A stretch of 29,816 nt of DNA from an uncultured Planctomycetia bacterium (GCA_964372345.1 CAYJQR010000013.1:1-29816), one strand, 5' to 3'. Shown: positions 6,695 through 27,363, counted from the first letter of the stretch. Notes: generated by a model not told the origin, from the sequence alone. Translations and numbers: made by a program.

Positions 6695-6787
6695 GGAGAG
6701 GTGGGTGAGCGGCTGAAACCAATCGCCTGCTAAGCGATTGATCTCCCAAAAGGGGGTCCCCGGGTTCGAATCCCGGCCTCTCCGCCA
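6695..6787 (+). tRNA. tRNA-Ser (anticodon GCT), long variable arm, CCA encoded
   Basis: Acceptor stem GGAGAGG/CCTCTCC. Anticodon stem ATCGC/GCGAT with loop CTGCTAA. T-arm CCGGG-TTCGAAT-CCCGG. Discriminator G. Confidence 0.85.
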
Positions 6788-6812
6788 TACCGTCGCCCAA
6801 AGGGCGACGGTA
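6788..6812 (+). terminator. Perfect 11-bp stem-loop (TACCGTCGCCC-AAA-GGGCGACGGTA) immediately 3' of the tRNA
   Basis: Read directly. No U-tract follows, so it is more likely a processing or structural element than a classic intrinsic terminator. Confidence 0.3.
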
Positions 6813-6894
6813 TGGCGAGATCCGTTATAAGGTGGTGCAACACGAAACTTGGCGAGACGAACTCTCCGTCAAGCCCGCATAAATCAGAATAGGC

Positions 6895-7137
6895 ATGCAT
6901 TATGTTTACATTCTTCTCAATGAATCAAAAACAAGAACATATACCGGCGTCGCCAGAGATGTTGAGAAAAGACTACAAGATCATAATGACGGTAAAGTCA
7001 ACTCGTCCCGTCCATATCGTCCTTATCAGATCATTCACACCGAATCATTTGAAACATTGAGTGAAGCTCGACAAAAAGAGAAATTCTATAAATCAACAAC
7101 TGGCCGCAGAAGGTTGAAAGAAATCCTTTTTCGGTGA
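6895..7137 (+). CDS. GIY-YIG domain nuclease family protein (80 aa, YhbQ-like)
   Basis: N-terminal HYVYILLNESKTRTYTGVARDVEKRLQDHN fits the GIY-YIG signature (YxYIL...Y.G.T.dl.rR...H). It lies next to a tRNA at the island edge. Confidence 0.7.
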   Translation: MHYVYILLNESKTRTYTGVARDVEKRLQDHNDGKVNSSRPYRPYQIIHTESFETLSEARQKEKFYKSTTGRRRLKEILFR

Positions 7138-7205
7138 ATCCTTTTCAGTCTCGATCTCTGAACCCCCTTCCTTTTATTCCTCAAAAGGTATATATTAAAT
7201 GTTAA

Positions 7206-7451
7206 ATGCCGAAGATTCGATCCATGAAAACAGCCATAGACCCCAAAAAACTAGGCAAAAAGATCAAGCTGGCCCGGGTGGAGCAGGACCTGACCCAAAC
7301 CCAACTGGCCGACCTCATCCAGGCCAAGCAAAAGAGCATTTCCCGGTATGAAGGTGGCTTGTCCATGCCATCCGTAGAGACCCTGGTCAAAATCGCTAAG
7401 ACTCTTAGAAAACCTACGGCTTACTTCTTGGAAGATGAGGGAAAGGTATGA
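7206..7451 (+). CDS. XRE-family helix-turn-helix transcriptional regulator (possible controller of the adjacent Mrr cassette)
   Basis: LTQTQLADLIQAKQKSISRYEGG is a Cro/C1-type HTH. A TATATT box lies upstream. The true start may be the second ATG at 7224. Confidence 0.7.
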   Translation: MPKIRSMKTAIDPKKLGKKIKLARVEQDLTQTQLADLIQAKQKSISRYEGGLSMPSVETLVKIAKTLRKPTAYFLEDEGKV

Positions 7452-7454
7452 AAG
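7372..7454 (+). repeat. Direct repeat copy A (3' end of the XRE gene)
   Basis: About 80 bp, roughly 88% identical to 9312..9392 (ccgtagagaccctggtcaaaatcgctaagactcttagaaaacctacggcttacttcttggaagatgag...). Confidence 0.7.
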
Positions 7455-7506
7455 CTAATCAGTATTATTTCGGTTGTCGTTAGTCGTTAACGAAGAAAGG
7501 ATATAC

Positions 7507-8424
7507 ATGGCAATACCAGATTTCCAATCAACCATGCTTCCACTGCTTCATTTTACAGCCGATGGGAGCGAACGGTCATCTCGAGAAGCAATCGAAGGGT
7601 TAGCTGAAAAATTCGGGCTTACGGATGCCGAAAGAAAAGAACTGTTGCCAAGTGGACAGCAATTTACTTTTGATAATCGGCTTAATTGGGCTCGAACCTA
7701 TATGAGCAAAGCCGGCCTGTTGGAACCGACACAACGCGGGTATTTCCGGATAACTCAACGTGGCAAGGAAGTACTTGCGAAAAATCCCTCTACGATTAAT
7801 GTAAAGTTTCTAGAACAATTCCCTGAGTTCATAGAATTCAGAACTAAACACCGAGAACAAAAAGAAACTAAAGCAGCGATCGAAACGGAAACCCTCCAAA
7901 CACCTGCCGAATTGCTTGAAACTGCGTATCAGAAACTTCACGAAGATCTGTCTGCCGAGCTTCTGAAGAACGTGAAGGAAGAATGTTCTCCTACTTTTTT
8001 TGAACGTCTTGTTATCGACCTTTTGGTAAAAATGGGCTATGGCGGCAACCGAAAGGAAGCAGGGAAAGCCATTGGACGGAGCGGCGATGAAGGAATTGAC
8101 GGAATCATCAACGAAGATCGTCTTGGGCTTGATGTCATCTACATTCAGGCGAAGCGATGGCAGGCGCCGGTCGGGCGTCCAGAAATTCAAAAATTCGCCG
8201 GCGCCCTACAAGGACATCGCGCAAAGAAAGGTATCTTTATCACAACTTCTGCCTTTACCAAAGAAGCCGAGGATTATGTCGCGAAAATCGATTCGAAGAT
8301 TGTCCTAATAGACGGCGAACAACTCGCTCAGTTCATGATTGATCACAACATTGGAGTAACTTCGGTTGCCTCATATGAAACCAAGAGGATCGACTCCGAT
8401 TACTTTGCCGAAGGGGCGGCGTAA
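7507..8424 (+). CDS. mrr: Mrr-family type IV (modification-dependent) restriction endonuclease
   Basis: N-terminal winged helix (MAIPDFQSTMLPLL...). Mrr catalytic core LVIDLLVKMGYGG...GRSGDEGIDGI...DVIYIQAKRW. A GAAAGGA Shine-Dalgarno sits 6 nt before ATG 7507. The in-frame upstream TTG at 7474 was rejected. Confidence 0.85.
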   Translation: MAIPDFQSTMLPLLHFTADGSERSSREAIEGLAEKFGLTDAERKELLPSGQQFTFDNRLNWARTYMSKAGLLEPTQRGYFRITQRGKEVLAKNPSTINVKFLEQFPEFIEFRTKHREQKETKAAIETETLQTPAELLETAYQKLHEDLSAELLKNVKEECSPTFFERLVIDLLVKMGYGGNRKEAGKAIGRSGDEGIDGIINEDRLGLDVIYIQAKRWQAPVGRPEIQKFAGALQGHRAKKGIFITTSAFTKEAEDYVAKIDSKIVLIDGEQLAQFMIDHNIGVTSVASYETKRIDSDYFAEGAA

Positions 8425-8457
8425 CATCCGCGTACTGAAAAGAGAAAGCCATAGAAA

Positions 8458-9222
8458 ATGTCTCAATACTACAACGCCAAACGGTCTAGAAATCTTTTTG
8501 ATCCAGAATCACGTGAACCATTCAGATTAAGCCGGACGAAAATTGAATTATTCATCGGTTGTCCGCGTTGTTTTTACCTTGATCGGCGACTAGGAATAGA
8601 TCGTCCTCCCGGCTTCCCATTTAATTTAAACTCGGCAGTAGACACCCTTCTCAAAAAAGAATTTGATCTCTATCGCGCCAAAGGGACTGCCCATCCCTTC
8701 ATGAAAACCTATGGAGTGGATGCTGTCCCTTTTCAGCACGAGAAAATCGAAGAATGGCGGGATGCTCGCAAACGAGGGATTACTTATTTACACCAACCTA
8801 CAAATCTTCTCATCACAGGCGGAGTGGATGACGTATGGATTAACCCTGACAGGGAATTAATCATTGTTGATTACAAAAGCACCTCAAAGAATGGAGAAGT
8901 AGACATAGGCGCCGATTGGCAGATGTCTTACAAGAGGCAAATGGAAGTCTACCAATGGCTGTTTAGGCGAAACAATTTCAAAGTCTCATCAACCGGATAT
9001 TTTGTGTATTGCAACGGGATTACAGATAAAGAATCCTTTAACAATAAACTGGAATTTAATATCAAGCTGATTCCTTACGAGGCAAATGACGCTTGGGTTG
9101 AGGAAACGATCCACGACATCCACAAATGTCTGTTGAGCCACAATATCCCTGATCTGGAAGAGGAATGCGATTATTGCCAGTATTATGATGCGCTGAGATC
9201 AGCAGATGTTTTGGTAAAATGA
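8458..9222 (+). CDS. Cas4/RecB-like PD-(D/E)XK nuclease with four-cysteine cluster
   Basis: The IIVDYKS stretch looks like a (D/E)xK core. Flanking CPRC (N-terminal) and CDYC (C-terminal) pairs resemble the Fe-S ligation pattern of Cas4/AddB-type nucleases. It lies 33 nt downstream of mrr. Confidence 0.65.
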   Translation: MSQYYNAKRSRNLFDPESREPFRLSRTKIELFIGCPRCFYLDRRLGIDRPPGFPFNLNSAVDTLLKKEFDLYRAKGTAHPFMKTYGVDAVPFQHEKIEEWRDARKRGITYLHQPTNLLITGGVDDVWINPDRELIIVDYKSTSKNGEVDIGADWQMSYKRQMEVYQWLFRRNNFKVSSTGYFVYCNGITDKESFNNKLEFNIKLIPYEANDAWVEETIHDIHKCLLSHNIPDLEEECDYCQYYDALRSADVLVK

Positions 9223-9269
9223 TTGATCTATGTGAAAAGGCTGGCTTTGGCCGAGAGACACCAAAATAG

Positions 9270-9392
9270 GAAGCGCTATCAAATATTTCTGAGTGCGGAT
9301 TATTCATAACACCCATAGAGTCCCTAGTCAAAATCGCTAAGACTCTTAAAAAACCCACGGCTTACTTCTTGGAGGATGAAAGAAATGAAAGG
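9270..9392 (+). pseudogene. Start-less 3' fragment of an XRE regulator gene (repeat copy B, displaced gene end)
   Basis: In frame it reads ...ITPIESLVKIAKTLKKPTAYFLEDERNERT*, compared with the intact XRE C-terminus SVETLVKIAKTLRKPTAYFLEDEGKV*. There is no start codon. DNA identity to 7372..7454 is about 88%. Confidence 0.55.
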
Positions 9393-9497
9393 ACATAAAG
9401 TTTAATCAGCTCGAATCGGTAAAAACGTTCTATTATACGTTTATTTGAAGACTTCCAAAGGGGCCGATTTGGGGGTGGAATTGATTTTCTCCAAGAG

Positions 9498-10748
9498 ATG
9501 GTGAAAGTTGGGAAGGCAATCCCGTCGGAGGACGAAGTGAGGAATCTTGAGTTACCAGGAGAAGGTCAATATAAACTGCCAAACGACACCGAGGTTTCCA
9601 ATGAGCTATTGCCGGATCTCCAAGAGAGTGAAGAACGCCAACGGTATTTAAAATTGGCATTAGCACTTCCAATCTCTGAAATATTATTTTCGGTGAGATC
9701 AAAAAATTGTTTAAAAAATCTAAGGATACAACATTTGAAAGATTTAGTTTTGTTGAGCAGAGATCAAATTTTATCCCAGAAGAATGCCGGGAAAAGAAGC
9801 CTAAAGGAGATGAGCGATTTCTTAAATCAGTTGGAACTCGATTTAGGAATGAATTTAACGTCCTCATTATTGAAAGCTATAGAATGGCAGATAAAGAGCG
9901 TTCGGGATCCCGAAAAGCTGATGGAGGATTTTCGTAATTCCTACCCTGAAAAAACCATTGTACTAAAAGAAGTCCGAATCCAAACCATTAAGCCTGAACG
10001 GATGGAATTTTATAAGCCTTGTTTTGAATTATACACGCATGGCGGGACGCTTCAATCTGTTGCTATGGCCATGAAATTGACGCGTGAAAGAATCCGACAG
10101 ATTTTGATAAAGGGGACTGCGTATAAGTTATTCGAGTATAATGGCCGTGAATATCCATATATTTTAAAAGCAAAACTACTTTCAGATTTGAGCAAATACC
10201 CAAGCATGAGTACGGTTTCCAAAATTAATAAAATATCAACGGTATATTTAAAAAGATTACTTCTTGCTTATCACATTACGTCTGAGCAAATGGAGGAATT
10301 TAAGGAAAGGTCCCGGAAGCAACAAGCTATAGAAGATTTCAACGCTGTGAGAGATCAACTTGGCCATAACCCAACGACAACGGAGTTGCAAGCAAATGGG
10401 GAATGGAGGTCTCTTGGAAATAGAATTAGACGGAATTGGGGTAATTTTCAAGAATTTCGGCAAGCGTTAAATATTCCGCCACCACCACCATTTGCTGAAG
10501 TAACCAAACGGTGGATCGAACACAGATCTCGTTTGGCTCTGATTCGGAGAATGCAAGATTTGGATTCAGTTAGAGATTGTCTCGAGAAGTTGGGACCCCT
10601 AAATACATCCGAAATTGCTAGGCGATGCCAATTGAAATCGATGAGAGCGTTTAAATTAACACAACTGCTCTTGGCAACGGGAGAAGTGTCACGTGACGGC
10701 GTGGGAAGCCAGACCAAATACAGAATAAGTAAGATCGGAGGGAGATAA
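9498..10748 (+). CDS. Multi-HTH DNA-binding protein: RNAP alpha-CTD-like domain + sigma-70 region-4-like HTH + HNH-associated-repeat-like motif
   Basis: LFSVRSKNCLKNLRIQHLKDLVLLSRDQILSQKNAGKRSLKEMSDFLNQLELDLGMNL parallels RpoA alpha-CTD ([57 protein letters not shown]). GGTLQSVAMAMKLTRERIRQI resembles sigma-70 region 4. LGHNPTTTELQANGEWRSLGNRIRRNWGNFQEF resembles the GRxPT...FGSW repeat. Its stop abuts the next gene's start. Confidence 0.6.
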   Translation: MVKVGKAIPSEDEVRNLELPGEGQYKLPNDTEVSNELLPDLQESEERQRYLKLALALPISEILFSVRSKNCLKNLRIQHLKDLVLLSRDQILSQKNAGKRSLKEMSDFLNQLELDLGMNLTSSLLKAIEWQIKSVRDPEKLMEDFRNSYPEKTIVLKEVRIQTIKPERMEFYKPCFELYTHGGTLQSVAMAMKLTRERIRQILIKGTAYKLFEYNGREYPYILKAKLLSDLSKYPSMSTVSKINKISTVYLKRLLLAYHITSEQMEEFKERSRKQQAIEDFNAVRDQLGHNPTTTELQANGEWRSLGNRIRRNWGNFQEFRQALNIPPPPPFAEVTKRWIEHRSRLALIRRMQDLDSVRDCLEKLGPLNTSEIARRCQLKSMRAFKLTQLLLATGEVSRDGVGSQTKYRISKIGGR

Positions 10749-12434
10749 ATGAAGATAATTACAAAAACGAAACTGCAAATCAAAGATCAGGGCGAGTTGC
10801 TAAACCAAATTGCAGGCACCTATAAAGACTTTTTTAGAGCGGCTATGGAGTACATCGATAATTCGGTTGATGCGGCTACCGGATTACAGCAAGATGGGAA
10901 GAAATTTTCTGCCAAAATTCATATAGAAGTCGACCCTGACAAGAAGACAGTCTCTTTTGCTGATAACTGTGGGGGAATGTCGCCTCAGGAATTGTGCGAG
11001 TTATTATCAAATGTGGGCCGGTCTAGAAAAAAGGCAGTTTCTTGGGCTAATGGACAATTTGGATTTGGCGTTCACGCCTTTAGAGCTTTTGCTAGGGAAG
11101 CTATTTTTATAAGTCGGAAGAAGAATTGTAAAGAAGCAATGATAAAGATAGATCGCACAGTCCATGAAAACCAAGATGTCCCATGTGTAGAAACGGATGT
11201 GAAACAGCTTAAGGAGCCGGGAACGCGGGTTATTATTTCTCGATTTGATTCACATGTTTTTCAAAAGGCCACTTTCGTCAAAACTTTAGCCGCTGAAGTC
11301 GAACATCATTTCGACGATGTCTTGAGGGCTAAATTAGCACGTATCTCTATTTCTGAGAAAGATAAAAGATCGCACGAATGTTCCCATTTCGATTTCGACT
11401 CGCTACCAGGTCCTGTTTTGAAAAAAACTTTTTCTTTGATGTCTGATGGAAAACAAAGCGAAATTGAAGTTGATTTAAAGGTTTTAGATCGTGTTCAAGA
11501 TAACAGATTCCCTGTTCTCACAAATAAATGTCGACGAGTTCAAAATATTTCTGATTTGAAAAGCTATAAAAACTTTTTGAGAACAAAGGGAGAGATAAGT
11601 TACATATGGAACAACCCTTTTGTGGTTGGCTCCATTGAAATTAACGGTTTTTGCTCTCCAAATTTAACCAGAGACGACTTAAAGGATTTAAAAGAACGCG
11701 AGCAACTGTACGAAAAGATATGCGAAGTACAGAATGATCTGAAGCACTTGATTGATGAAACGATGGATAAAAAAACTAGGGAATCATTTCGAAGAATTGG
11801 AAGTATAATGTCGGATTGCCTGGCTCAAATACTTAAAAATTTTAAGCTTGAATTCGAACAATTAGCTCCTTCAGGCATTACCGGGAATCTTGCGGAACAT
11901 ATTGAAGAAGGAAACGGGAAAATACCATTCGGCGGTGACGATGAGCCGGGTGGCGGTGGACCAGGTCCAAATGAAGAAGGTTCGGGGGGTAGACGATCTG
12001 ACGAAGGCAGATCAGGTGTTGGTAAAGATGAAAAAGGTGGCGGAGCTAATGATAAAAGAAAAACTTCTGGCCAAGGAGGAGCATCGACGGAAAAAATTAT
12101 TCAATCGCCTGGACCCAGGATCGAATTTCAAAATCATGCCGGAGAAGACAGAGTTATCGATTTAGGAAACTCCCTTATCGTCAACACACAGCATTCGGAT
12201 TTCATATTAAGGAATCCACGATCAACAGGTAAGATCAAATTCGACGTTAGGTTATTGAATTACGTCTCTCAAGTTGTGTCTCCATATTGTGTCCACAGAC
12301 TATTCGAGCGTAAAGGAAAAGTACCGTCCGTATCAGAAGTTGGGGCAAATGTAATTAATCTAAGTTTGAATCTCGAAAAAGAGTTGCTTAAAACCGTTTT
12401 GGGGACAGAAATAGATACAATGGTATATGCCTGA
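10749..12434 (+). CDS. GHKL (Bergerat-fold, MORC/MutL-like) ATPase with Gly-rich low-complexity segment
   Basis: N-box EYIDNSVDA, G1 box DNCGGM and G2 box GQFGFGVHA are present. A GGAGGGA Shine-Dalgarno precedes the ATG. Residues about 395-450 form a G/D/E/K-rich disordered stretch. Confidence 0.8.
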   Translation: MKIITKTKLQIKDQGELLNQIAGTYKDFFRAAMEYIDNSVDAATGLQQDGKKFSAKIHIEVDPDKKTVSFADNCGGMSPQELCELLSNVGRSRKKAVSWANGQFGFGVHAFRAFAREAIFISRKKNCKEAMIKIDRTVHENQDVPCVETDVKQLKEPGTRVIISRFDSHVFQKATFVKTLAAEVEHHFDDVLRAKLARISISEKDKRSHECSHFDFDSLPGPVLKKTFSLMSDGKQSEIEVDLKVLDRVQDNRFPVLTNKCRRVQNISDLKSYKNFLRTKGEISYIWNNPFVVGSIEINGFCSPNLTRDDLKDLKEREQLYEKICEVQNDLKHLIDETMDKKTRESFRRIGSIMSDCLAQILKNFKLEFEQLAPSGITGNLAEHIEEGNGKIPFGGDDEPGGGGPGPNEEGSGGRRSDEGRSGVGKDEKGGGANDKRKTSGQGGASTEKIIQSPGPRIEFQNHAGEDRVIDLGNSLIVNTQHSDFILRNPRSTGKIKFDVRLLNYVSQVVSPYCVHRLFERKGKVPSVSEVGANVINLSLNLEKELLKTVLGTEIDTMVYA

Positions 12435-13321
12435 TGAAAGCTAATGTTCAGACTATAATTAAAGCGATATCGGATTCAAATAATAGATATCGGGATTCCT
12501 CCTCAGATACAAGAACCAAGCTTGAAGCTCTGTGGAATATTGGAGATTGTCTTGTGCGGCTTGGCGTAAATAAGCCGCATTCGATGGGATGGATCGTACA
12601 AAAAGAGACAAAAGGTCTCATTAAGAGGCCAACAATATTTCGAAGTTTCAAAATTCGTCAAATATGGAACTCAAAGGACGATCTTCTGCGTGATATCGGG
12701 AATATTAAAGGGGTCAACTTCTTGATAGACATGTTGCCGTTAATCGATCCTCGGCAAGAAGTTCGAAAGAAGCTTAAGGAAGATGAAATTAAACAAATCT
12801 ATAAGAAGGCATGTGCTAGTTCTGTGGGTCAATTCAAAAGTTATATTGTAGAATTGAAAACTAAATATTCTCACGATAGGCTTGGCAAACGGCTAGATAA
12901 GTCGAAACACTTGGTAGAAATAGAATTTGTAACTAAGAATTTCGGCTCATTGCAACGTTTTCTTCTAGGTCTCATCCAGCAAAAGGAAAGTACTGGGCGT
13001 GATAGATTCAGACAAGAAATCAAGCGTGAGGAATTTCGCGCTTTTTCCAATATGTGTATTTCCCTAACGACCAAAAACAATATCCGTTTATATAAGAAGG
13101 CAGGGGTTTCTCTTTCGAATACAGAGAATCAGCAGTTTAAAGTTTTGTACGATTATTTTTACTCAATTCTCAATAAAGCAGCTGACACGGAACGCGCAAG
13201 AGTTCGTCGCTTGATTTCTCCAGAAGCTTTTGCGCAAATGTCTGATATTATCTCTTCGATTCAAAATGAAGAAAGTTTAGACGACTTTAGACTTAGACAA
13301 CAATTATCAATAGGGCTGTGA
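12434..13321 (+). CDS. Hypothetical protein (295 aa), candidate effector/nuclease partner of the GHKL-Dam operon
   Basis: The start overlaps the upstream stop by 1 nt (TGATG) and the stop lies 1 nt before the methyltransferase start. No family motif was recognised. Confidence 0.6.
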   Translation: MKANVQTIIKAISDSNNRYRDSSSDTRTKLEALWNIGDCLVRLGVNKPHSMGWIVQKETKGLIKRPTIFRSFKIRQIWNSKDDLLRDIGNIKGVNFLIDMLPLIDPRQEVRKKLKEDEIKQIYKKACASSVGQFKSYIVELKTKYSHDRLGKRLDKSKHLVEIEFVTKNFGSLQRFLLGLIQQKESTGRDRFRQEIKREEFRAFSNMCISLTTKNNIRLYKKAGVSLSNTENQQFKVLYDYFYSILNKAADTERARVRRLISPEAFAQMSDIISSIQNEESLDDFRLRQQLSIGL

Positions 13322-13322
13322 C

Positions 13323-14222
13323 ATGCAACCATTTCTAAAATGGGCTGGTGGAAAACGTTGGCTGATCCCCAAGATTAAAGACAGCATCCCTCCGTTCAGA
13401 ACTTATTTTGAACCATTCTTAGGAAGTGCCGCCCTGTTCTTTGCATTGGAACCTAAGTCGGCAATTTTATCGGACACCAATCCGGAACTCATAGGTTGTT
13501 ACAGAGTTATCAAGAACCATTGTGAGTCTATGATCAAAGTATTAGAGAGATTAAAGATTACAAAATCGGATTATTACGCAATTCGAGAAAAATTTAATAG
13601 TGGGAACGAACCAATTAAGAAAGCAGCATACTTCATTTATCTGAACAAAACTTGCTGGAATGGTCTTTACCGCGTGAATAACCACGGCAAATTTAACGTG
13701 CCAGTCGGTACGCACCTTCAGCGTGGGTATAAGGTCTTCGACGCGGATCATTTGAAGAATGCTAGTCGTCTTTTAAATCGGGCCATAATTAAACGGTGCG
13801 ACTTTGAAGAAGCAACAAAGGATGCTAGAAACAAAGATCTCGTATACTTTGATCCTCCTTATATAACAACGCATTTAAAGAATGGTTTTATCAAATATAA
13901 CTCCGTCTTATTTCACCAGTCTGATGAATTGCGATTGGCAAAAGTGGCGGAAAAACTGGCTAAGCGTAGAATTCAAGTAATTCTAAGTAATGCCGCTCAC
14001 CCACTAATAAAACAACAATATAACGGATGTTTTTACAAAACGGAAATATTACGGCCTAGCCTAATTGCTGGGGATCCCTCGAAAAGGACAAGGTTTCTTG
14101 AGCTTCTTGTTACTAGTTTTCCACTGACTATAGAGACCAGAGAATATTCGGAGCGCCAAGATGAAGCTATTCCTAAAGATGTACGGTATAAGCCTTTTTA
14201 TAATCCAAAGTGTAAATTTTGA
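13323..14222 (+). CDS. Dam-family (D12 class, alpha-group) N6-adenine DNA methyltransferase
   Basis: N-terminal LKWAGGKRWLIPKI...FEPFLGSAALFF matches the AdoMet motif. The catalytic motif IV is VYFDPPYITT, compared with E. coli Dam VYCDPPYAPL. Confidence 0.85.
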   Translation: MQPFLKWAGGKRWLIPKIKDSIPPFRTYFEPFLGSAALFFALEPKSAILSDTNPELIGCYRVIKNHCESMIKVLERLKITKSDYYAIREKFNSGNEPIKKAAYFIYLNKTCWNGLYRVNNHGKFNVPVGTHLQRGYKVFDADHLKNASRLLNRAIIKRCDFEEATKDARNKDLVYFDPPYITTHLKNGFIKYNSVLFHQSDELRLAKVAEKLAKRRIQVILSNAAHPLIKQQYNGCFYKTEILRPSLIAGDPSKRTRFLELLVTSFPLTIETREYSERQDEAIPKDVRYKPFYNPKCKF

Positions 14223-14309
14223 AGACTGCGCGTAAATATGGGATCGAGTTTGGGCATTGGACAGAGTAGGAAATAGAGACGGTTCTTGTTTTTGACCGCG
14301 AAGTGATAA

Positions 14310-14537
14310 AATAAAAACCGCCCCTATTTATTATCGAAGAATTCGCCATCCGCCAAAGGGCAGGATGAAATCGTTGGATTCGTTAAAAAGCGGCTGGAAC
14401 TCGGAAGAGCGGCTGAAGGAAAAACTCCCGAAATTGAGGAGATTGAGCGGGCCATCAACGTTGCTGTTTATCGCCTTTACAGCCTCACAAAAGAAGAAAT
14501 TACCATCGTAGAACAGTGTGGGGTGAAAGATAAATAG
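14310..14537 (+). pseudogene. C-terminal remnant of a type IIG/Eco57I-like (gamma-class N6-MTase-containing) restriction-modification enzyme
   Basis: A start-less ~75-codon frame ends ...KTPEIEEIERAINVAVYRLYSLTKEEITIVEQCGVKDK*. That is the characteristic ...ID.lVy.LYgLTeEEI.iVE C-terminal helix of Eco57I/PglX/TaqI-type enzymes. An in-frame stop lies immediately upstream. Confidence 0.4.
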
Positions 14538-14539
14538 TT

Positions 14540-15127
14540 ATGGATATTAATGATATCCAAGAGCTGCATTTTATTACGGATATAAAGAATGTTGATTCGA
14601 TTATGCGAGAAGGTATTCTGTCGCATAACAAGGCGGGTAGAATTCCTCATCGCTCGATTGCGGAGCAGGGTGTTCAAGAGCGCAGGCAAAATAAAAAAAT
14701 TCCCGGCACAAACAAACGTTTGCATGATTATACAAATCTGTATTTCAATGCCCATAATCCCATGCTTAGTGCGAGAAGGCAGCTGAATGATTCGATTTGC
14801 GTCTTGCGCATCAATAAACATGTTTTGTCTATAGAAGGGGTTATCATCACAGATCAAAATGCAAGCAGGGATTGTTGGTTCAAGCCGGTATCCGAGGGAT
14901 TACCATTACTGAAGCATGAAGAGATTTTTGCTGAATTTTGGATCAATAGAGAAGATCCAATGGAAGAATATCGATTGAAGGGCATAAAATGCGCTGAAGT
15001 CTTAGTGCCAAAGTGCGTTCATCCATCACACATTTTATCGGCATACGTAGCCAATAATACTGCGCTGAGCGATTTTAAAAAGGCGTCGACTTTATCTGTG
15101 CAAATTAATGGGAATTTGTTTTTCTAA
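14540..15127 (+). CDS. darT: DarT, ssDNA thymidine ADP-ribosyltransferase toxin (DUF4433)
   Basis: LHFITDIKNVDSIMREGILSHN...RSIAEQGVQERRQNKKIP...LHDYTNLYFNAHNPMLSA...CAEVLVPKCVHPSHI follows the DarT pattern (hFTHi.NL.sIL, HDYVPFYF, catalytic-Glu EvLV). A macrodomain gene lies directly downstream. Confidence 0.7.
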   Translation: MDINDIQELHFITDIKNVDSIMREGILSHNKAGRIPHRSIAEQGVQERRQNKKIPGTNKRLHDYTNLYFNAHNPMLSARRQLNDSICVLRINKHVLSIEGVIITDQNASRDCWFKPVSEGLPLLKHEEIFAEFWINREDPMEEYRLKGIKCAEVLVPKCVHPSHILSAYVANNTALSDFKKASTLSVQINGNLFF

Positions 15128-15138
15128 AGGGGGGTATC

Positions 15139-16251
15139 ATGGAAATCTTAATCGGGGATATATTCAACTCTAAAGCGCAGACATTAATTAACACTGTGAA
15201 TTGTGTCGGCGTTATGGGCAAGGGAATTGCGGCCGAATTTAAAAAACGCTATCCGGAGATGTTTGATGATTACATTTCACGATGTCAAAAAAGAGAAGTC
15301 AAGCCCGGCATTCCTTATTTGTTTAAAACCTCGTCATTGTTTGTTCCACAAGTCGTCAATTTCCCTACAAAGACCGATTGGCGCGCGGCATCTCATGTTG
15401 AGGACATAGAGAAGGGTTTGAAGATTCTTGTGTCAAAATACAAAGAATGGGGGGTTAAGTCAATAGCCGTTCCCCCATTGGGTTGTGGCAACGGGCAGTT
15501 ATTATGGGAAACCGTAGGACCTTTGATTTATAAATATCTGTCCAAATTGGATATCCCGGTTCAAATGTATGCTCCATATGGCGCCCCGTCAGTTCAATTG
15601 ACGGAAAAATATCTTTCCCGGGCGTTTGACTTGAAGGAATCCAAGTCAGAAGATGCTATTCTGCAAAAGATGAACCCTGCTTGGGCTTCACTGGTCGAGA
15701 TAGTGTATCGTCTCGAAAAACAGACTTACCATTTGCCTGTAGGCAGAACTATTTTTCAGAAGATAGCATATGTCGCTACAGCGCTTGGCATCCCTACTGG
15801 GCTGGGCCATGTTCGTGGACCCTATGGCCCATATTGTAAGGCACTGGATGATGTTAAGAAAAGATTGTCAAACGCGGGATTGTTGCAGGAAGAAAGACTC
15901 GGGCCTATGTTTCAACTTGTTCCGGGACATGCTTATGAAAAGGATCGTTCAAAATATCAGGACAGCTTTCGAAAATGGGGCAGCCTGATCGATAAAACAG
16001 TTGACCTTTTTCTTAGGCTAGATACCCATAAGGCAGAGATTGTAGCTACCGTTTTGTATACAGAGAGGACAATAAATAAAGGGCGCACGACCGAGAAAGA
16101 TGTCCTTAATGAGGTTGTGAAATGGAAACAAAAACGCCGTCCTCCGCTCAATGAAATAGAAGTGGCCGAAACAATTCGTAATTTAGGAATACTAAAATGG
16201 TTTGATTTGAAACCATCAACCGATATGCCAATTCAGGACGATTGGGTCTAA
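15139..16251 (+). CDS. darG: DarG, macrodomain DNA ADP-ribosylglycohydrolase antitoxin
   Basis: N-terminal macro domain LINTVNCVGVMGKGIAAEFKKRYPEMFDDY...VVNFPTKTDWRAASHVEDIEKGL...IAVPPLGCGNGQLLWETVGP closely parallels DarG (VNTVNTVGVMGKGIALQFK...PLGCGNGGL). A strong AAGGGGGG Shine-Dalgarno is present. It lies 11 nt after darT. Confidence 0.75.
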   Translation: MEILIGDIFNSKAQTLINTVNCVGVMGKGIAAEFKKRYPEMFDDYISRCQKREVKPGIPYLFKTSSLFVPQVVNFPTKTDWRAASHVEDIEKGLKILVSKYKEWGVKSIAVPPLGCGNGQLLWETVGPLIYKYLSKLDIPVQMYAPYGAPSVQLTEKYLSRAFDLKESKSEDAILQKMNPAWASLVEIVYRLEKQTYHLPVGRTIFQKIAYVATALGIPTGLGHVRGPYGPYCKALDDVKKRLSNAGLLQEERLGPMFQLVPGHAYEKDRSKYQDSFRKWGSLIDKTVDLFLRLDTHKAEIVATVLYTERTINKGRTTEKDVLNEVVKWKQKRRPPLNEIEVAETIRNLGILKWFDLKPSTDMPIQDDWV

Positions 16252-16606
16252 TTACACGAAAGTTTAATAAACAGCAAAGTTCCTGCCTCTTTCGAGCGAA
16301 AAAGTACCAGGCGGTTATCCACAGGGACAACGATGGTTATGAGATTTTACGGTAATCGGCTTCTTTGAGAATAAAGACGTGATGTTGAAGCACCAGTTTA
16401 AAGAGAATCGGTTCCGATTTTAATGCATTAAAGATCCTTCAATCATTAAAGTGTTAAGGAATCTTCCGAAGATCAAAAACCCAACCGTCTTTTTCCCCTA
16501 AAACGTCCCATCAGGGCTAAAACCATCAAAAAATTCAAATGGGAAATAGTGGACGGTACCGTTGCCTTTTGCTAAACTATTTTTTTTGGAAGGGTCCAAA
16601 ATCAGG

Positions 16607-17776
16607 ATGCCAAATGAGTCAAAGGATTGCGAAAAATCAACCCCGAAACAAATGCATTTTAAGATACCCAAACTAGATAAGTTGGTTGGGATTATCGATG
16701 ACGTTATCCCCGCAGGCGAGACTGGCAGAATCATGGTCAAAGGGTTCCTGACATCGGATGACCCAAAGTTCCATATTGCAGCCGACCACATCTCCGCGAT
16801 TCTTCTAAACAAGCACGTCCAGACAGACTCGGTAAATACATTCTTGGCCCTCCTGCATCAGGATCAGTCTGCTGATGTATACGTAAACGACATCGCTATT
16901 GGCATTCAGGTACATGCCAAACGATCACTGGTCAAGGGGGAAGCCGTGAGAGTGAACGACATCGTCGACATTAAAGCTCTGCGTTTTCTGGAAATCAAAG
17001 TTGAGCAAACGGACAATATCATATTTCTGTTCAAAAAAGGGTGGAAGTTCGGGTTCTTCCTCAACTTGCAACAGTGGGAGGGAAAGAATAAATTGGATGT
17101 TGCGAGTCTTGAGAGGGAACTTGGGGATTACTACAAATACCTGGCTTTTGAGAAAGAATTGAAGGTTATAGAGGACAAGCAGTCGTTTGAGGAGTTATTT
17201 GATGATGGGTGGTTCCCGTTTATCCAGTTGCTCGGAGGAGAGTATCCAGAGCTTGGTCACATCTACCAGACAGGTGAGAAATCAGGTGAACCAATGGAGC
17301 AATTCCTGAATAAGTTCGGTCAGGAACGGATAGCCCGTATGAAGCAGAACTGGTGGGATTGTCCCGTGTTCGCTGCCAAGAAAGTAATCATCGAAGCGGC
17401 TCTTTCCTCGTATCTTTTGATGACCGGCACAGGATTTATCAACTGCATCAAGAATCTCTATTCCGAGATTGAAGGAGTTATCCGAGTGAGCTGTCACCGG
17501 AAGACTGGTCAAAAACCCACTTTTTCAAAATTGGTGACCTTCCTGGAACACAAGGCAGCAAATAAGTTCACATCTATCAACTCCCTTGCTTTTCCACCGA
17601 TATTTGCAAAGTATCTCAGAGAGGTGATTTTCAAGGATTTCGACCTTTCAACAGGGCAAGTAGACATATCACGGCACTCAGTGGTTCATGGTGTTGCCGA
17701 GGCTGTTGCATATTCGCGAGCTAAAGCTCTTCAGTCGATTCTCACACTCGATCAAATTTACTTTTACCTCATATGA
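16607..17776 (+). CDS. Hypothetical protein (~390 aa), possible C-terminal HEPN-like Rx4H motif
   Basis: Long ORF in the AT-rich island. The first ATG in the frame was chosen. No clear family match. ISRHSVVHG near the C-terminus fits the HEPN Rx4-6H pattern; this is weak evidence. Confidence 0.55.
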   Translation: MPNESKDCEKSTPKQMHFKIPKLDKLVGIIDDVIPAGETGRIMVKGFLTSDDPKFHIAADHISAILLNKHVQTDSVNTFLALLHQDQSADVYVNDIAIGIQVHAKRSLVKGEAVRVNDIVDIKALRFLEIKVEQTDNIIFLFKKGWKFGFFLNLQQWEGKNKLDVASLERELGDYYKYLAFEKELKVIEDKQSFEELFDDGWFPFIQLLGGEYPELGHIYQTGEKSGEPMEQFLNKFGQERIARMKQNWWDCPVFAAKKVIIEAALSSYLLMTGTGFINCIKNLYSEIEGVIRVSCHRKTGQKPTFSKLVTFLEHKAANKFTSINSLAFPPIFAKYLREVIFKDFDLSTGQVDISRHSVVHGVAEAVAYSRAKALQSILTLDQIYFYLI

Positions 17777-17814
17777 TGGGAGGAGTAACATAATAGTTAG
17801 GGGGAAAATTGCTA

Positions 17815-18336
17815 ATGAGTTACGTGATGGTAGATGTTGAGGCGGATGGGCCAATCCCGGGAGATTATTCAATGATCTCTTTTGGAGCGGTTATTGTTGA
17901 ATCAGCGCTATCGAAAACCTTTTATGGGAAATTAAAACCGATCTCAGGAAAGTGGGAACCGGAGGCATTAAAGGTGAGTAGATTGACTCGTGAAGAAACG
18001 TTAAGTTTTGAAGATCCGAAATCCGTTATGGAAAGGTTTGCTGTTTGGATCAGGGAAAGCTCAAAAGACAGGCCGATCTTCATATCGGACAACAATGGTT
18101 TCGATTGGCAATTCATTAACTGGTATTTTCACCATTTCTTGGGGCAGAATCCATTTGGTTTTTCATCAATGAATCTGGGGTCGCTCTATAAGGGGCTTGT
18201 TCGGGACACGTTCAAAAACTTTAAGCATCTGCGTAAAACAAAACACACGCATCATCCTGTTGATGACGCGAAAGGTAACGCGGAAGCGTTATTAGAACTG
18301 AATCGAGAGTTTGGTCTGAAAATGCAGTTTGAATGA
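17815..18336 (+). CDS. Stand-alone DEDDh (DnaQ-like) 3'-5' exonuclease, 173 aa
   Basis: Exo I motif VMVDVEADGP, Exo II ISDNNGFDWQFINW and Exo III HTHHPVDDAKGNAEALLEL (H-x4-D) are present. An AGGGGGA Shine-Dalgarno lies 8 nt upstream. It sits 38 nt after the preceding gene. Confidence 0.75.
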   Translation: MSYVMVDVEADGPIPGDYSMISFGAVIVESALSKTFYGKLKPISGKWEPEALKVSRLTREETLSFEDPKSVMERFAVWIRESSKDRPIFISDNNGFDWQFINWYFHHFLGQNPFGFSSMNLGSLYKGLVRDTFKNFKHLRKTKHTHHPVDDAKGNAEALLELNREFGLKMQFE

Positions 18337-18338
18337 AA

Positions 18339-18542
18339 CTAGGAAACAGTACTTTCTTTGATATAAACCTCAAAAGAGTTATTTCGTAACCGTATCCCGC
18401 GTATTCGCGATTTTGGAATCCAGGTTTTTATTCCTGCATCAACTAATACTGCCTTTTCGGTCTCGTGTAAGAAGCGAACCCGGATCCAAATGTGTGTCTC
18501 TTGAGGACATAGAAGCCAATAGAAACCAAATGGCCGGATCAT
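18339..18542 (-). CDS. Small hypothetical protein (67 aa)
   Basis: An internal ATG is preceded on the minus strand by AAGGAGA at ideal spacing. The longer 122-aa form would add an Ala/Arg/Ser low-complexity N-terminus encoded by a GC-rich tandem repeat, which is judged unlikely. Convergent with the exonuclease gene, 2 nt apart. Confidence 0.4.
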   Translation of the reverse strand: MIRPFGFYWLLCPQETHIWIRVRFLHETEKAVLVDAGIKTWIPKSRIRGIRLRNNSFEVYIKESTVS

Positions 18543-19383: not shown

Positions 19384-19471
19384 GGAGAGGTGTCCGAGCG
19401 GCCGAAGGAGCCGGTCTCGAAAACCGGTAGAGGCTTTAAGCTTCTCGTGAGTTCGAATCTCACCCTCTCCG
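19384..19471 (+). tRNA. tRNA-Ser (anticodon CGA), long variable arm, no encoded CCA
   Basis: Acceptor GGAGAGG/CCTCTCC. Anticodon stem CCGGT/ACCGG with loop CTCGAAA. T-arm GTGAG-TTCGAAT-CTCAC. Discriminator G. Confidence 0.85.
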
Positions 19472-19525
19472 TTCTTCTTCGCCCTTCACCAACTGAGATG
19501 ATGGTAGGGCTTCGAAGCAACGATC
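19472..19525 (+). repeat. tRNA 3'-trailer element, copy 1 (TTCTTCTTCGCCC...GATGATGGTAGGGCTTCGAAG)
   Basis: Shares its core with 19613..19665 and 22884..22935, and partly with 21778..21806. Confidence 0.5.
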
Positions 19526-19537
19526 GACGGCCTTTAC

Positions 19538-19612
19538 GCGCCAATAGCTCAGCCCGGATAGAGCACCTGCCTACGAAGCAGGTTGCCGCAGGTTCAAATC
19601 CTGCTTGGCGCA
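19538..19612 (+). tRNA. tRNA-Arg (anticodon ACG)
   Basis: Acceptor GCGCCAA/TTGGCGC. D-arm GCTC...GAGC. Anticodon stem CCTGC/GCAGG with loop CTACGAA. T-arm GCAGG-TTCAAAT-CCTGC. Discriminator A. Confidence 0.85.
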
Positions 19613-19665
19613 TTCTTCTTCGCCGTTCGACAAGAAAGATGATGGTACGGCTTCGAAGGAATATG
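19613..19665 (+). repeat. tRNA 3'-trailer element, copy 2 (TTCTTCTTCGCCG...GATGATGGTACGGCTTCGAAG)
   Basis: See copy 1. Confidence 0.5.
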
Positions 19666-27287: not shown

Positions 27288-27363
27288 GTCCCCGTAGCTA
27301 GAGCCCGGACAGAGCACTAGCCTCCGGAGCTAGGTGCCGGGAGTTCAAATCTCCCCGAAAGAA
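27288..27363 (+). pseudogene. Degenerate tRNA-Arg(CCG)-like duplicate (pseudo-tRNA)
   Basis: About 90% identical to the intact tRNA 100 nt downstream across the D, anticodon and T arms. The 5' acceptor strand (GTCCCCG) has no complementary 3' strand (CGAAAGA) and the D-stem has a mismatch/insertion. Confidence 0.45.

Follow-up and report, generated by a model that had tools for sequence, protein, structure and literature searches.

An apparently undescribed candidate GHKL-ATPase defence operon with an integrated Dam methylase in an uncultured Planctomycetia bacterium

Results

A compact cassette of four co-directional genes

The window analysed here is a 29,816-nucleotide (nt) stretch of DNA from an uncultured Planctomycetia bacterium (GCA_964372345.1 CAYJQR010000013.1:1-29816), and four open reading frames (ORFs) on its + strand make up the cassette under study. 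Gene A (9498-10748) encodes a protein of 416 amino acids (aa) which its ORF and domain matches mark as a DNA-binding adaptor with several helix-turn-helix (HTH) elements. Gene B (10749-12434) encodes a 561-aa GHKL+S5 ATPase, gene C (12434-13321) a 295-aa obligate partner of B with an orphan all-alpha fold, and gene M (13323-14222) a 299-aa Dam-family (D12 class) N6-adenine DNA methyltransferase, a clade-specific accessory. A and B abut, B and C overlap by 1 nt, and C and M are separated by 1 nt. An original prediction, made by reading the sequence, had taken these genes for a defence operon resembling restriction-modification (R-M); its four frames and their junctions were reproduced exactly, and its domain calls (an alpha-CTD/sigma-like A, a GHKL protein B, an unmatched C and a Dam protein M) held on Pfam and NCBIfam profile matches.

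All four frames are full-length and free of frameshifts and stops. Compared with the closest relative, the ratio of nonsynonymous to synonymous substitution (dN/dS) was 0.19 for A, 0.06 for B and 0.09 for both C and M, values that point to purifying selection on every gene. Purifying selection, together with a gene order that recurs in dozens of independent contigs, argues that the cassette is not a chance arrangement.

The B-C pair is the conserved core

About 45 loci were collected from species genomes, metagenomes and exact-protein look-ups, and A, B, C, M and a further gene, S, were mapped on each (individual loci are cited below by L numbers). There were 126 homologues of C, all of ~295 aa, and a C profile search of 1.84 billion representative proteins returned only 119 clusters (50% identity), almost all of them standalone proteins. 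Wherever the sequence reaches far enough upstream, B lies directly before C, remote relatives (~25% identity) included, and under that condition A precedes B throughout clades 1 and 2. A remote branch has the order S-B-C and no A. S itself is a strongly conserved basic protein of 70-80 aa (ERFKRLAEQRTNxVLxKLxxLGNCxNR...) encoded upstream of A in about 13 of the 21 clade-1 loci; it was mapped, for example, at 4740-4961 in L001, 4747-4959 in L022 and 2157-2396 in L058. The remote branch, though it has no A, retains the gene; clade 2 and several otherwise intact loci do without it, and its only family assignment was a weak DUF4145 match (E 0.009). This distribution suggests that (S)-B-C is the deep core of the family, with A as a near-constant adaptor and Dam as a clade-specific integrated accessory, and that the full form of the cassette is S-A-B-C-M. 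The four genes had been expected to stay together across genomes: a co-inherited operon was indeed found, but the four-gene unit itself did not hold up, because Dam is absent from about eight independent loci in which A-B-C is intact.

The hosts of the family belong to Omnitrophota, Planctomycetota, Nitrospira, Patescibacteria and WOR-3. Since the family is confined to uncultured phyla, screens in model bacteria would have missed it. The cassette was not found among IMG/VR viral contigs, INPHARED phages or PLSDB plasmids, and carriage by phages or plasmids was rejected on that basis. Two members of the family have unusual features. The remote B-C pair in L020/L021 is readable only with TGA as glycine (e.g. 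DNCG*M and *QF*FG), which would indicate a code-25 host of the candidate phyla radiation. In L059 (477-1817; P0340), a remote C-family protein continues into a fused C-terminal domain of ~150 aa, with many predicted strands and a weak DUF6438 match (E 0.0014).

B has intact ATPase motifs and C an orphan fold

B matched Pfam HATPase_c_3 (E 2e-12), and its AlphaFold2 (AF2) model had a predicted confidence (pLDDT) of 75, falling below 50 in the linker. The model contains a GHKL domain (aa 1-170), an S5-like transducer (aa 176-300), a long helix (aa 315-363), a Gly-rich disordered linker of ~75 aa (aa 374-449, nt 11868-12095) and a small alpha/beta C-terminal domain (aa 450-550, nt 12096-12398). 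The ATP-binding motifs are invariant (E34/N38/D41, D72xGxG76, G102QFGFG107 and G158T159). This places B among the GHKL+S5 ATPases (Hsp90, MutL, MORC, SMCHD1), with its ATP-binding motifs intact. The description of B as MutL/MORC-like was borne out in its layout, ATPase followed by linker and C-terminal domain, which is that of MutL; its fold score, however, was closer to Hsp90/TRAP1 than to MORC. Against NCBIfam, B gave only weak HSP90/HtpG/sacsin-type matches far under the cut-off, and nothing MutL-like. A motif, NTxHxDFxxRN, is conserved in the C-terminal domain, where no conserved metal-binding or nuclease motif (HExxH, His-rich or DQHA...E) was found. Three more specific identities were considered for B and rejected: MutL proper, as it has neither the MutL endonuclease motif nor a mutL family match, and, on architecture, a CapK-like GHKL kinase (no STAS domain) and a Shedu-type GHKL-nuclease (no DUF4263).

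C had no match in Pfam, NCBIfam, PADLOC or PHROGs. Its AF2 model is confident (pLDDT 92) and all-alpha, with 17 helices, and neither a BFVD structure search nor a sequence search of the PDB gave a match. The protein is basic, with abundant invariant Arg and Lys, and weakly resembles the ParB/KorB DNA-binding domain; its invariant polar residues are H49, D105, D251, D271, N206 and N216. Inspection by eye for HEPN (Rx4-6H) or HD motifs revealed none that is conserved. C had been put forward as a protein of no recognisable family and as the natural candidate for a nuclease. The former was upheld. The latter was rejected, in that the confident all-alpha model had no fold or sequence match and the structure model and searches gave no PD-(D/E)XK, HNH or MutH/Sau3AI fold; an all-alpha C also does not fit a MutH/Sau3AI-like PD-(D/E)XK nuclease.

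A is a mosaic of promoter-reading modules with an exchangeable N-terminus

The RNA polymerase alpha subunit's C-terminal domain (alpha-CTD) and region 4.2 of sigma factors are the two modules with which the polymerase contacts upstream promoter DNA, and A has both. Its alpha-CTD occupies aa 54-110 (nt 9657-9827; Pfam RNA_pol_A_CTD, E 4e-13). A sigma-70 region 4.2 HTH follows at aa 179-206 (nt 10032-10115), with a Sigma70_r4 match (E 2e-4) that is short of the Pfam cut-off. This HTH carries TRERIRQI, identical to the recognition helix of region 4.2 in T. maritima sigma-A, and alignment of the other module to the E. coli alpha-CTD showed that VRSxNCLK and GK(K/R)S are kept, motifs that include the UP-element contacts R265, N268, C269, G296, K298 and S299. 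A thus keeps the DNA-contact residues of both modules, and these alignments agree with the earlier view of the first protein as a combination of DNA-binding modules of the transcription machinery. From alpha, nothing beyond the CTD was matched (~50-62 bits, where the rpoA cut-offs are 228-523), and from sigma nothing beyond region 4.2; A was accordingly rejected as an RNA polymerase alpha subunit or a sigma-70 factor, being a mosaic of single modules and not a full subunit.

The remainder of A, ~210 aa after the HTH, is conserved and gave weak HNH_repeat and winged-helix matches; the C-terminal 260 aa are kept in the TPR-type clade (30% identity, E 1e-36). The N-terminus is swapped among lineages and consists of two alpha-CTDs, two to four HTH-like repeats, or TPR. 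The alpha-CTD-sigma4 combination was also seen outside the cassette. An (alpha-CTD)2-sigma4 module opens a 646-aa protein encoded directly after dndB-dndC-dndD-dndE (L015 7001-8941, L016 6065-8005), and full-length A matched an internal region of BREX PglW (784-944, E 4.7e-6). There are hints here that the module may be an unstudied DNA-reading or sensing device common to modification-based defence systems. In L015 and L016, the gene for the 646-aa protein faces a helicase-containing four-gene block.

Dam is co-inherited in one clade and dispensable in several lineages

M matched TIGR00571 dam at 252 bits (cut-off 114.85) and PF02086 at 182 bits (cut-off 22, E 1.7e-53), as well as the PADLOC MTase_II/oMTase models, and its translation shows FDPPY and EPFLGSAALF (the catalytic DPPY and S-adenosylmethionine-binding motifs). 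These matches place M in the Dam family, D12 class, of N6-adenine DNA methyltransferases. In at least 24 loci the Dam gene begins -1 to 15 nt after C, and Dam identity tracks C identity across loci (r=0.94), which makes Dam an integrated, co-inherited part of the cassette in clade 1.

Dam is absent from L002, L012, L033, L039, L046/47, clade 2 (L003-6, the TPR-type sister clade) and the remote branch represented by L058, each with A-B-C or S-B-C intact. On a rough neighbour-joining tree, Dam was gained once at the base of clade 1 and then lost independently at least four times. Because A-B-C is intact where Dam is missing, methylation is not an obligatory self-protection of the R-M kind; and since at least four losses left the rest of the cassette in place, discrimination gated by methylation cannot be the general mechanism. 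The role of self-marking assigned to Dam in the original prediction was therefore not sustained as an obligatory one, as the methylase is optional and missing from the ~8 independent loci mentioned above.

Defence neighbourhoods and absence from databases

The flanks of the cassette differ from genome to genome and consist mostly of defence or integrative-element genes. The neighbour sets included a serine recombinase; SMODS+SLATT in a prophage-like contig that also carries terminase; BglII R-M with toxin-antitoxin pairs; a CBASS cyclase with a 2TM effector and an LmuB-like (Lamassu-like) gene; and ThsB/ThsA-macro (Thoeris) with IrrE-HTH and an NrS-1-type prim-pol. In the sister clade they were HsdR (Type I R-M) with GmrSD, or HNH, GmrSD-like and prokaryotic Argonaute (pAgo)-SIR2 genes. 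The defence-island setting proposed for the window is thus shared by cassettes in many unrelated genomes. No model for the family of B, for C or for S exists in PADLOC 2.0, NCBIfam 20 or Pfam, and PADLOC recognised only the methylase. The literature searched on GHKL/MORC ATPases, alpha-CTD proteins and Mza yielded no description of the gene set. The cassette is apparently an undescribed candidate GHKL-ATPase defence operon with an integrated Dam.

The window copy has lost its 5' end

Against the closest relative (L022/L023), the window aligned as a single colinear block from 9567 to 14220 at 84% nt identity, and the sequence upstream differs throughout. The first 23 codons of A (9498-9566) have no homology to the relatives. 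Moreover, the A proteins of the relatives have two alpha-CTDs and that of the window has one, and S, which the three closest relatives have, is missing from the window. These differences indicate a 5' truncation of the window copy, which has lost S, the first alpha-CTD of A and its native promoter region. The spacer before A contains, on the + strand, the 3' half of an XRE-type HTH gene (9290-9385). Its 96 nt directly repeat 7349-7444 at 82% identity; that other copy forms the 3' end of an intact XRE/HTH_3 gene (7206-7451) located upstream of Mrr. The remnant is a scar left at the junction by the rearrangement that removed the native 5' end of the cassette.

With S, the first alpha-CTD and the promoter region lost, the window copy may be impaired; as its remaining frames are intact, it may still work, though better specimens of the family exist. 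We considered it possible, though doubtful, that the copy is a decaying, non-working remnant, whatever the family does elsewhere. Such decay would account for a homology block that begins within A, for the missing S, for the XRE gene remnant in the spacer and for a further short ORF fragment at 14364-14537. It fits less well with four full-length frames that have no frameshift or stop, and with the in-frame ATG that A has gained. S is likewise missing from clade 2 and from several otherwise intact loci, and transcription could come from the co-directional genes upstream.

Features of the surrounding island

The cassette lies in a low-GC island (~6800-18500) with a GC content of 0.39-0.45 against ~0.51 in the flanks. 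The island begins directly after tRNA-Ser(gct) (6695-6787), and no integrase was seen anywhere in it. Besides the cassette it holds the XRE regulator, Mrr, a Cas4-like PD-(D/E)XK nuclease, DarT/DarG and a DEDDh exonuclease. The AT-rich island with Mrr, the Cas4-like nuclease and DarTG described in the original prediction was confirmed by the GC profile and domain matches; the R-M gene remnant included in that description was not, since the fragment at ~14364-14537 had no Pfam match. This fragment lies between Dam and DarT and ends '...IEEIERAINVAVYRLYSLTKEEITIVEQ'. We presume a resemblance to the C-terminal tail of Eco57I/PglX-type methylases, which the Pfam search left unconfirmed.

The Cas4-like nuclease (8458-9222, + strand; PDDEXK_1 E 5e-14, Cas4 models ~1e-8) is encoded directly upstream of the cassette. 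A 63%-identical homologue stands directly after C in L039 (9005-9760), in the usual place of Dam. Such a nuclease adjoins the cassette in only 2 of the ~45 loci. Since it recurs only in L039, we treated it as a neighbour and not as part of the conserved core, and it was rejected as the missing effector; it is possibly an occasional accessory, or a mere neighbour in the island. A 62%-identical homologue of the window Mrr lies upstream of A in L033 (2424-3326), so that two island neighbours of the window, the Cas4-like nuclease and Mrr, recur beside the cassette in other loci.

Other features were noted along the window. The first ORF of the island (6895-7137) encodes an 80-aa GIY-YIG protein (E 4e-15). 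At 16562-18336, a 404-aa protein that matched no family is followed by the DEDDh exonuclease, which matched the PADLOC 'Effector exonuclease' (E 6.5e-41); the two genes may form a defence module of their own. Within a tRNA cluster (Ser-cga, Arg-acg) at 19384-19661, a 49-nt spacer occurs twice (19472-19520 and 19613-19661, 84% identity). Rfam gave a weak tRNA-like match (27293-27357, 31.9 bits), not called by ARAGORN, just before tRNA-Arg(ccg) (region to 27465).

Discussion

The overall picture that we favour is a mobile system directed against phages or other mobile DNA and acting on DNA, and we put its chances at about even. It is supported by the invariant B-C pair, the presence of A throughout clades 1 and 2, purifying selection, the mobility and defence context of the loci, the motifs and fold of B, the DNA-reading modules and variable N-terminus of A, the recurrence of its alpha-CTD-sigma4 module in other modification-linked defence settings, the co-inheritance of Dam and the lack of database models for B's family, C and S. 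The single steps of a mechanism are each considerably less secure than this overall picture. On binding ATP, B would dimerise to form a clamp on DNA, in the manner of MutL and MORC. A would bring B to DNA, with a preference for promoter-like UP/-35 DNA, and C might stabilise or regulate the clamp on DNA, or be a cryptic effector. In the versions that carry Dam, adenine methylation would mark resident DNA and the complex would engage only unmethylated incoming DNA. The outcome could be a block of invader transcription or replication by a system with no in-built nuclease, more like BREX than R-M; alternatively, the complex could recruit a nuclease encoded elsewhere. As the cassette encodes no nuclease, a BREX-like outcome (exclusion or silencing) or the recruiting of an external nuclease appears more likely than cutting by the cassette itself.

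Several observations weigh against this picture. A defence role is assigned through guilt by association, and no effector domain was recognised among the cassette proteins. The family is rare, with its 119 clusters among 1.84 billion proteins, and no homologue was found in any cultured organism, plasmid or phage record. Dam has been lost at least four times while the rest stayed intact, S and part of A are missing from the window copy, and a depletion of GATC in the window, looked for as a sign of restriction pressure, was not found.

The modules of A allow a more specific and bolder proposal, to which we give only a small chance. A promoter-module adaptor (two alpha-CTDs plus sigma 4.2) might deliver the B-C clamp to strong promoters on unmethylated DNA and silence them without cutting, Dam exempting resident DNA, or the same modules might be decoys for phage proteins that hijack RNA polymerase. 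If true, either reading, a prokaryotic equivalent of MORC-type epigenetic silencing or decoys of this kind, would amount to a new principle of defence, built around a new protein fold.

Taken on its own as a rival, and in our view an unlikely one, the idea of a guarded decoy holds that A uses its alpha-CTD and sigma 4.2, or TPR in the sister clade, as bait, imitating the polymerase surfaces that phage take-over proteins bind or modify, that A, once bound or modified, switches on B-C to abort the infection, and that Dam has a side function. Phage T4 provides the precedent, with AsiA binding sigma region 4 and Alt/ModA ADP-ribosylating R265 of the alpha-CTD. The modules of A are indeed close mimics of those of the host, as the identical TRERIRQI and the kept VRSxNCLK and GKxS show, and exchange of an N-terminal module in front of a conserved remainder is typical of immune sensors, one of the variants being TPR, a protein-binding repeat. 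The persistence of the cassette without Dam in several lineages also speaks for this idea. However, the residues that are kept are DNA contacts and are equally expected for plain DNA binding, and the third N-terminal variant, of HTH-like repeats, suggests binding to DNA rather than to protein. A is missing altogether from the remote branch, a toxic effector was not recognised, and the tight co-inheritance of Dam would go unexplained.

The R-M-like model of the original prediction seems improbable to us. In that model Dam protects self DNA, and unmethylated DNA is cut by a nuclease with an unrecognised fold, either C or B's C-terminal domain, powered by the MutL-like ATPase. It draws on the tight linkage and co-evolution of Dam in most clade-1 loci, on the MutL-like architecture of B, on the invariant polar residues of C, which could form an active site, and on the GHKL ATPases predicted in R-M systems (PMC2292703). 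Yet the all-alpha C matched no nuclease fold and the C-terminal domain of B has none of the conserved motifs sought there; Dam was lost at least four times independently from loci with A-B-C intact, and is missing from the sister clade and the remote branch, when a true R-M pair could not survive losing its methylase without another Dam. PADLOC, moreover, recognised nothing but the methylase. Type II R-M membership was rejected for want of a cognate endonuclease of recognisable fold and of an obligatorily linked methylase, and R-M logic in general does not describe a cassette in which Dam is optional, C is not a recognisable nuclease and the four genes are not a conserved unit.

A non-defence role, in which a transcription factor-like protein, an ATPase and Dam serve integrative mobile elements as a regulatory or epigenetic module and control element genes or host promoters, is also improbable: Dam methylation is a known regulator of promoters, A is built of transcription-machinery modules, and serine recombinases, prim-pol and prophage repressor/replication genes adjoin the cassette in several loci, but many loci have defence genes on both sides and no mobile-element core gene nearby, the sister clade sits between GmrSD and pAgo-SIR2 or Type I R-M, the viral, phage and plasmid collections searched lack the cassette, and a variable N-terminus with patchy cross-phylum spread fits conflict systems.

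To our knowledge, GHKL/MORC-type ATPases have been predicted to have a restriction-like role since 2008, and almost none has a known mechanism. The cassette offers a compact and well-delimited example, an invariant pair of ATPase and orphan-fold protein with an adaptor made of polymerase modules, and its natural series of versions with and without Dam is a ready-made experiment on methylation gating.

Comparison with known systems

Our favoured picture of a mobile DNA-directed defence system can be set against five known systems. Mza (mzaABCDE; Gao et al. 2020, as cited in PMC9523054) is a defence operon with a sigma-70-type region 4 HTH protein and a MutL-like GHKL ATPase. Both operons pair these two proteins in defence islands, often beside a DNA methylase. 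The resemblance between A and NCBIfam MzaA is nevertheless limited to ~20 HTH residues (13.7 bits for the window A and at most 18.5 for other A homologues, against a cut-off of 800); B matched no PADLOC Mza model, and C and S have no Mza counterpart.

Iyer, Abhiman and Aravind 2008 (PMC2292703) predicted prokaryotic MORC/paraMORC ATPases in R-M operons, together with SF2 helicases, HNH/RE-fold/Vsr nucleases or TIR domains, and proposed that MORC-type GHKL ATPases act as an ATP-driven DNA clamp or looping engine. The cassette shares with them the GHKL+S5 module with intact motifs and the link to DNA methylases on mobile defence loci. It differs in having no SF2 helicase, HNH/RE-fold/Vsr nuclease or TIR, and the partners of B here, an alpha-CTD/sigma4 protein, an orphan all-alpha protein and a 70-aa protein, go unmentioned in that paper, where 'sigma' and 'alpha subunit' each occur 0 times.

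The analogy with MutL-Dam-MutH repair drawn in the original prediction agrees with the architecture of B and fails for the partner, in that C is all-alpha and not MutH-like. The cassette has no MutH or Sau3AI-like protein, B has no MutL endonuclease motif, and the genes form a horizontally mobile island set, not a housekeeping pathway.

Ambrosia (bioRxiv 10.1101/2025.09.30.679545) is a validated defence operon that combines an N6-adenine methylase, a HATPase-type protein and an HTH regulator, and is unlike conventional type II R-M. Its HATPase is a sensor histidine kinase that works with a response regulator and an HNH nuclease, whereas B is an ATPase of the Hsp90/MutL/MORC type with S5, and the cassette has no REC or HNH protein.

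BREX/Pgl (type 2) resembles the cassette in being a methylase-linked, multi-protein system with no obvious nuclease, and the internal region of PglW matches the alpha-CTD-sigma4 part of A. The cassette differs in having no PglX-type methylase, PglZ, BrxC/PglY or kinase; its methylase is a small Dam-type enzyme that is dispensable in several lineages.

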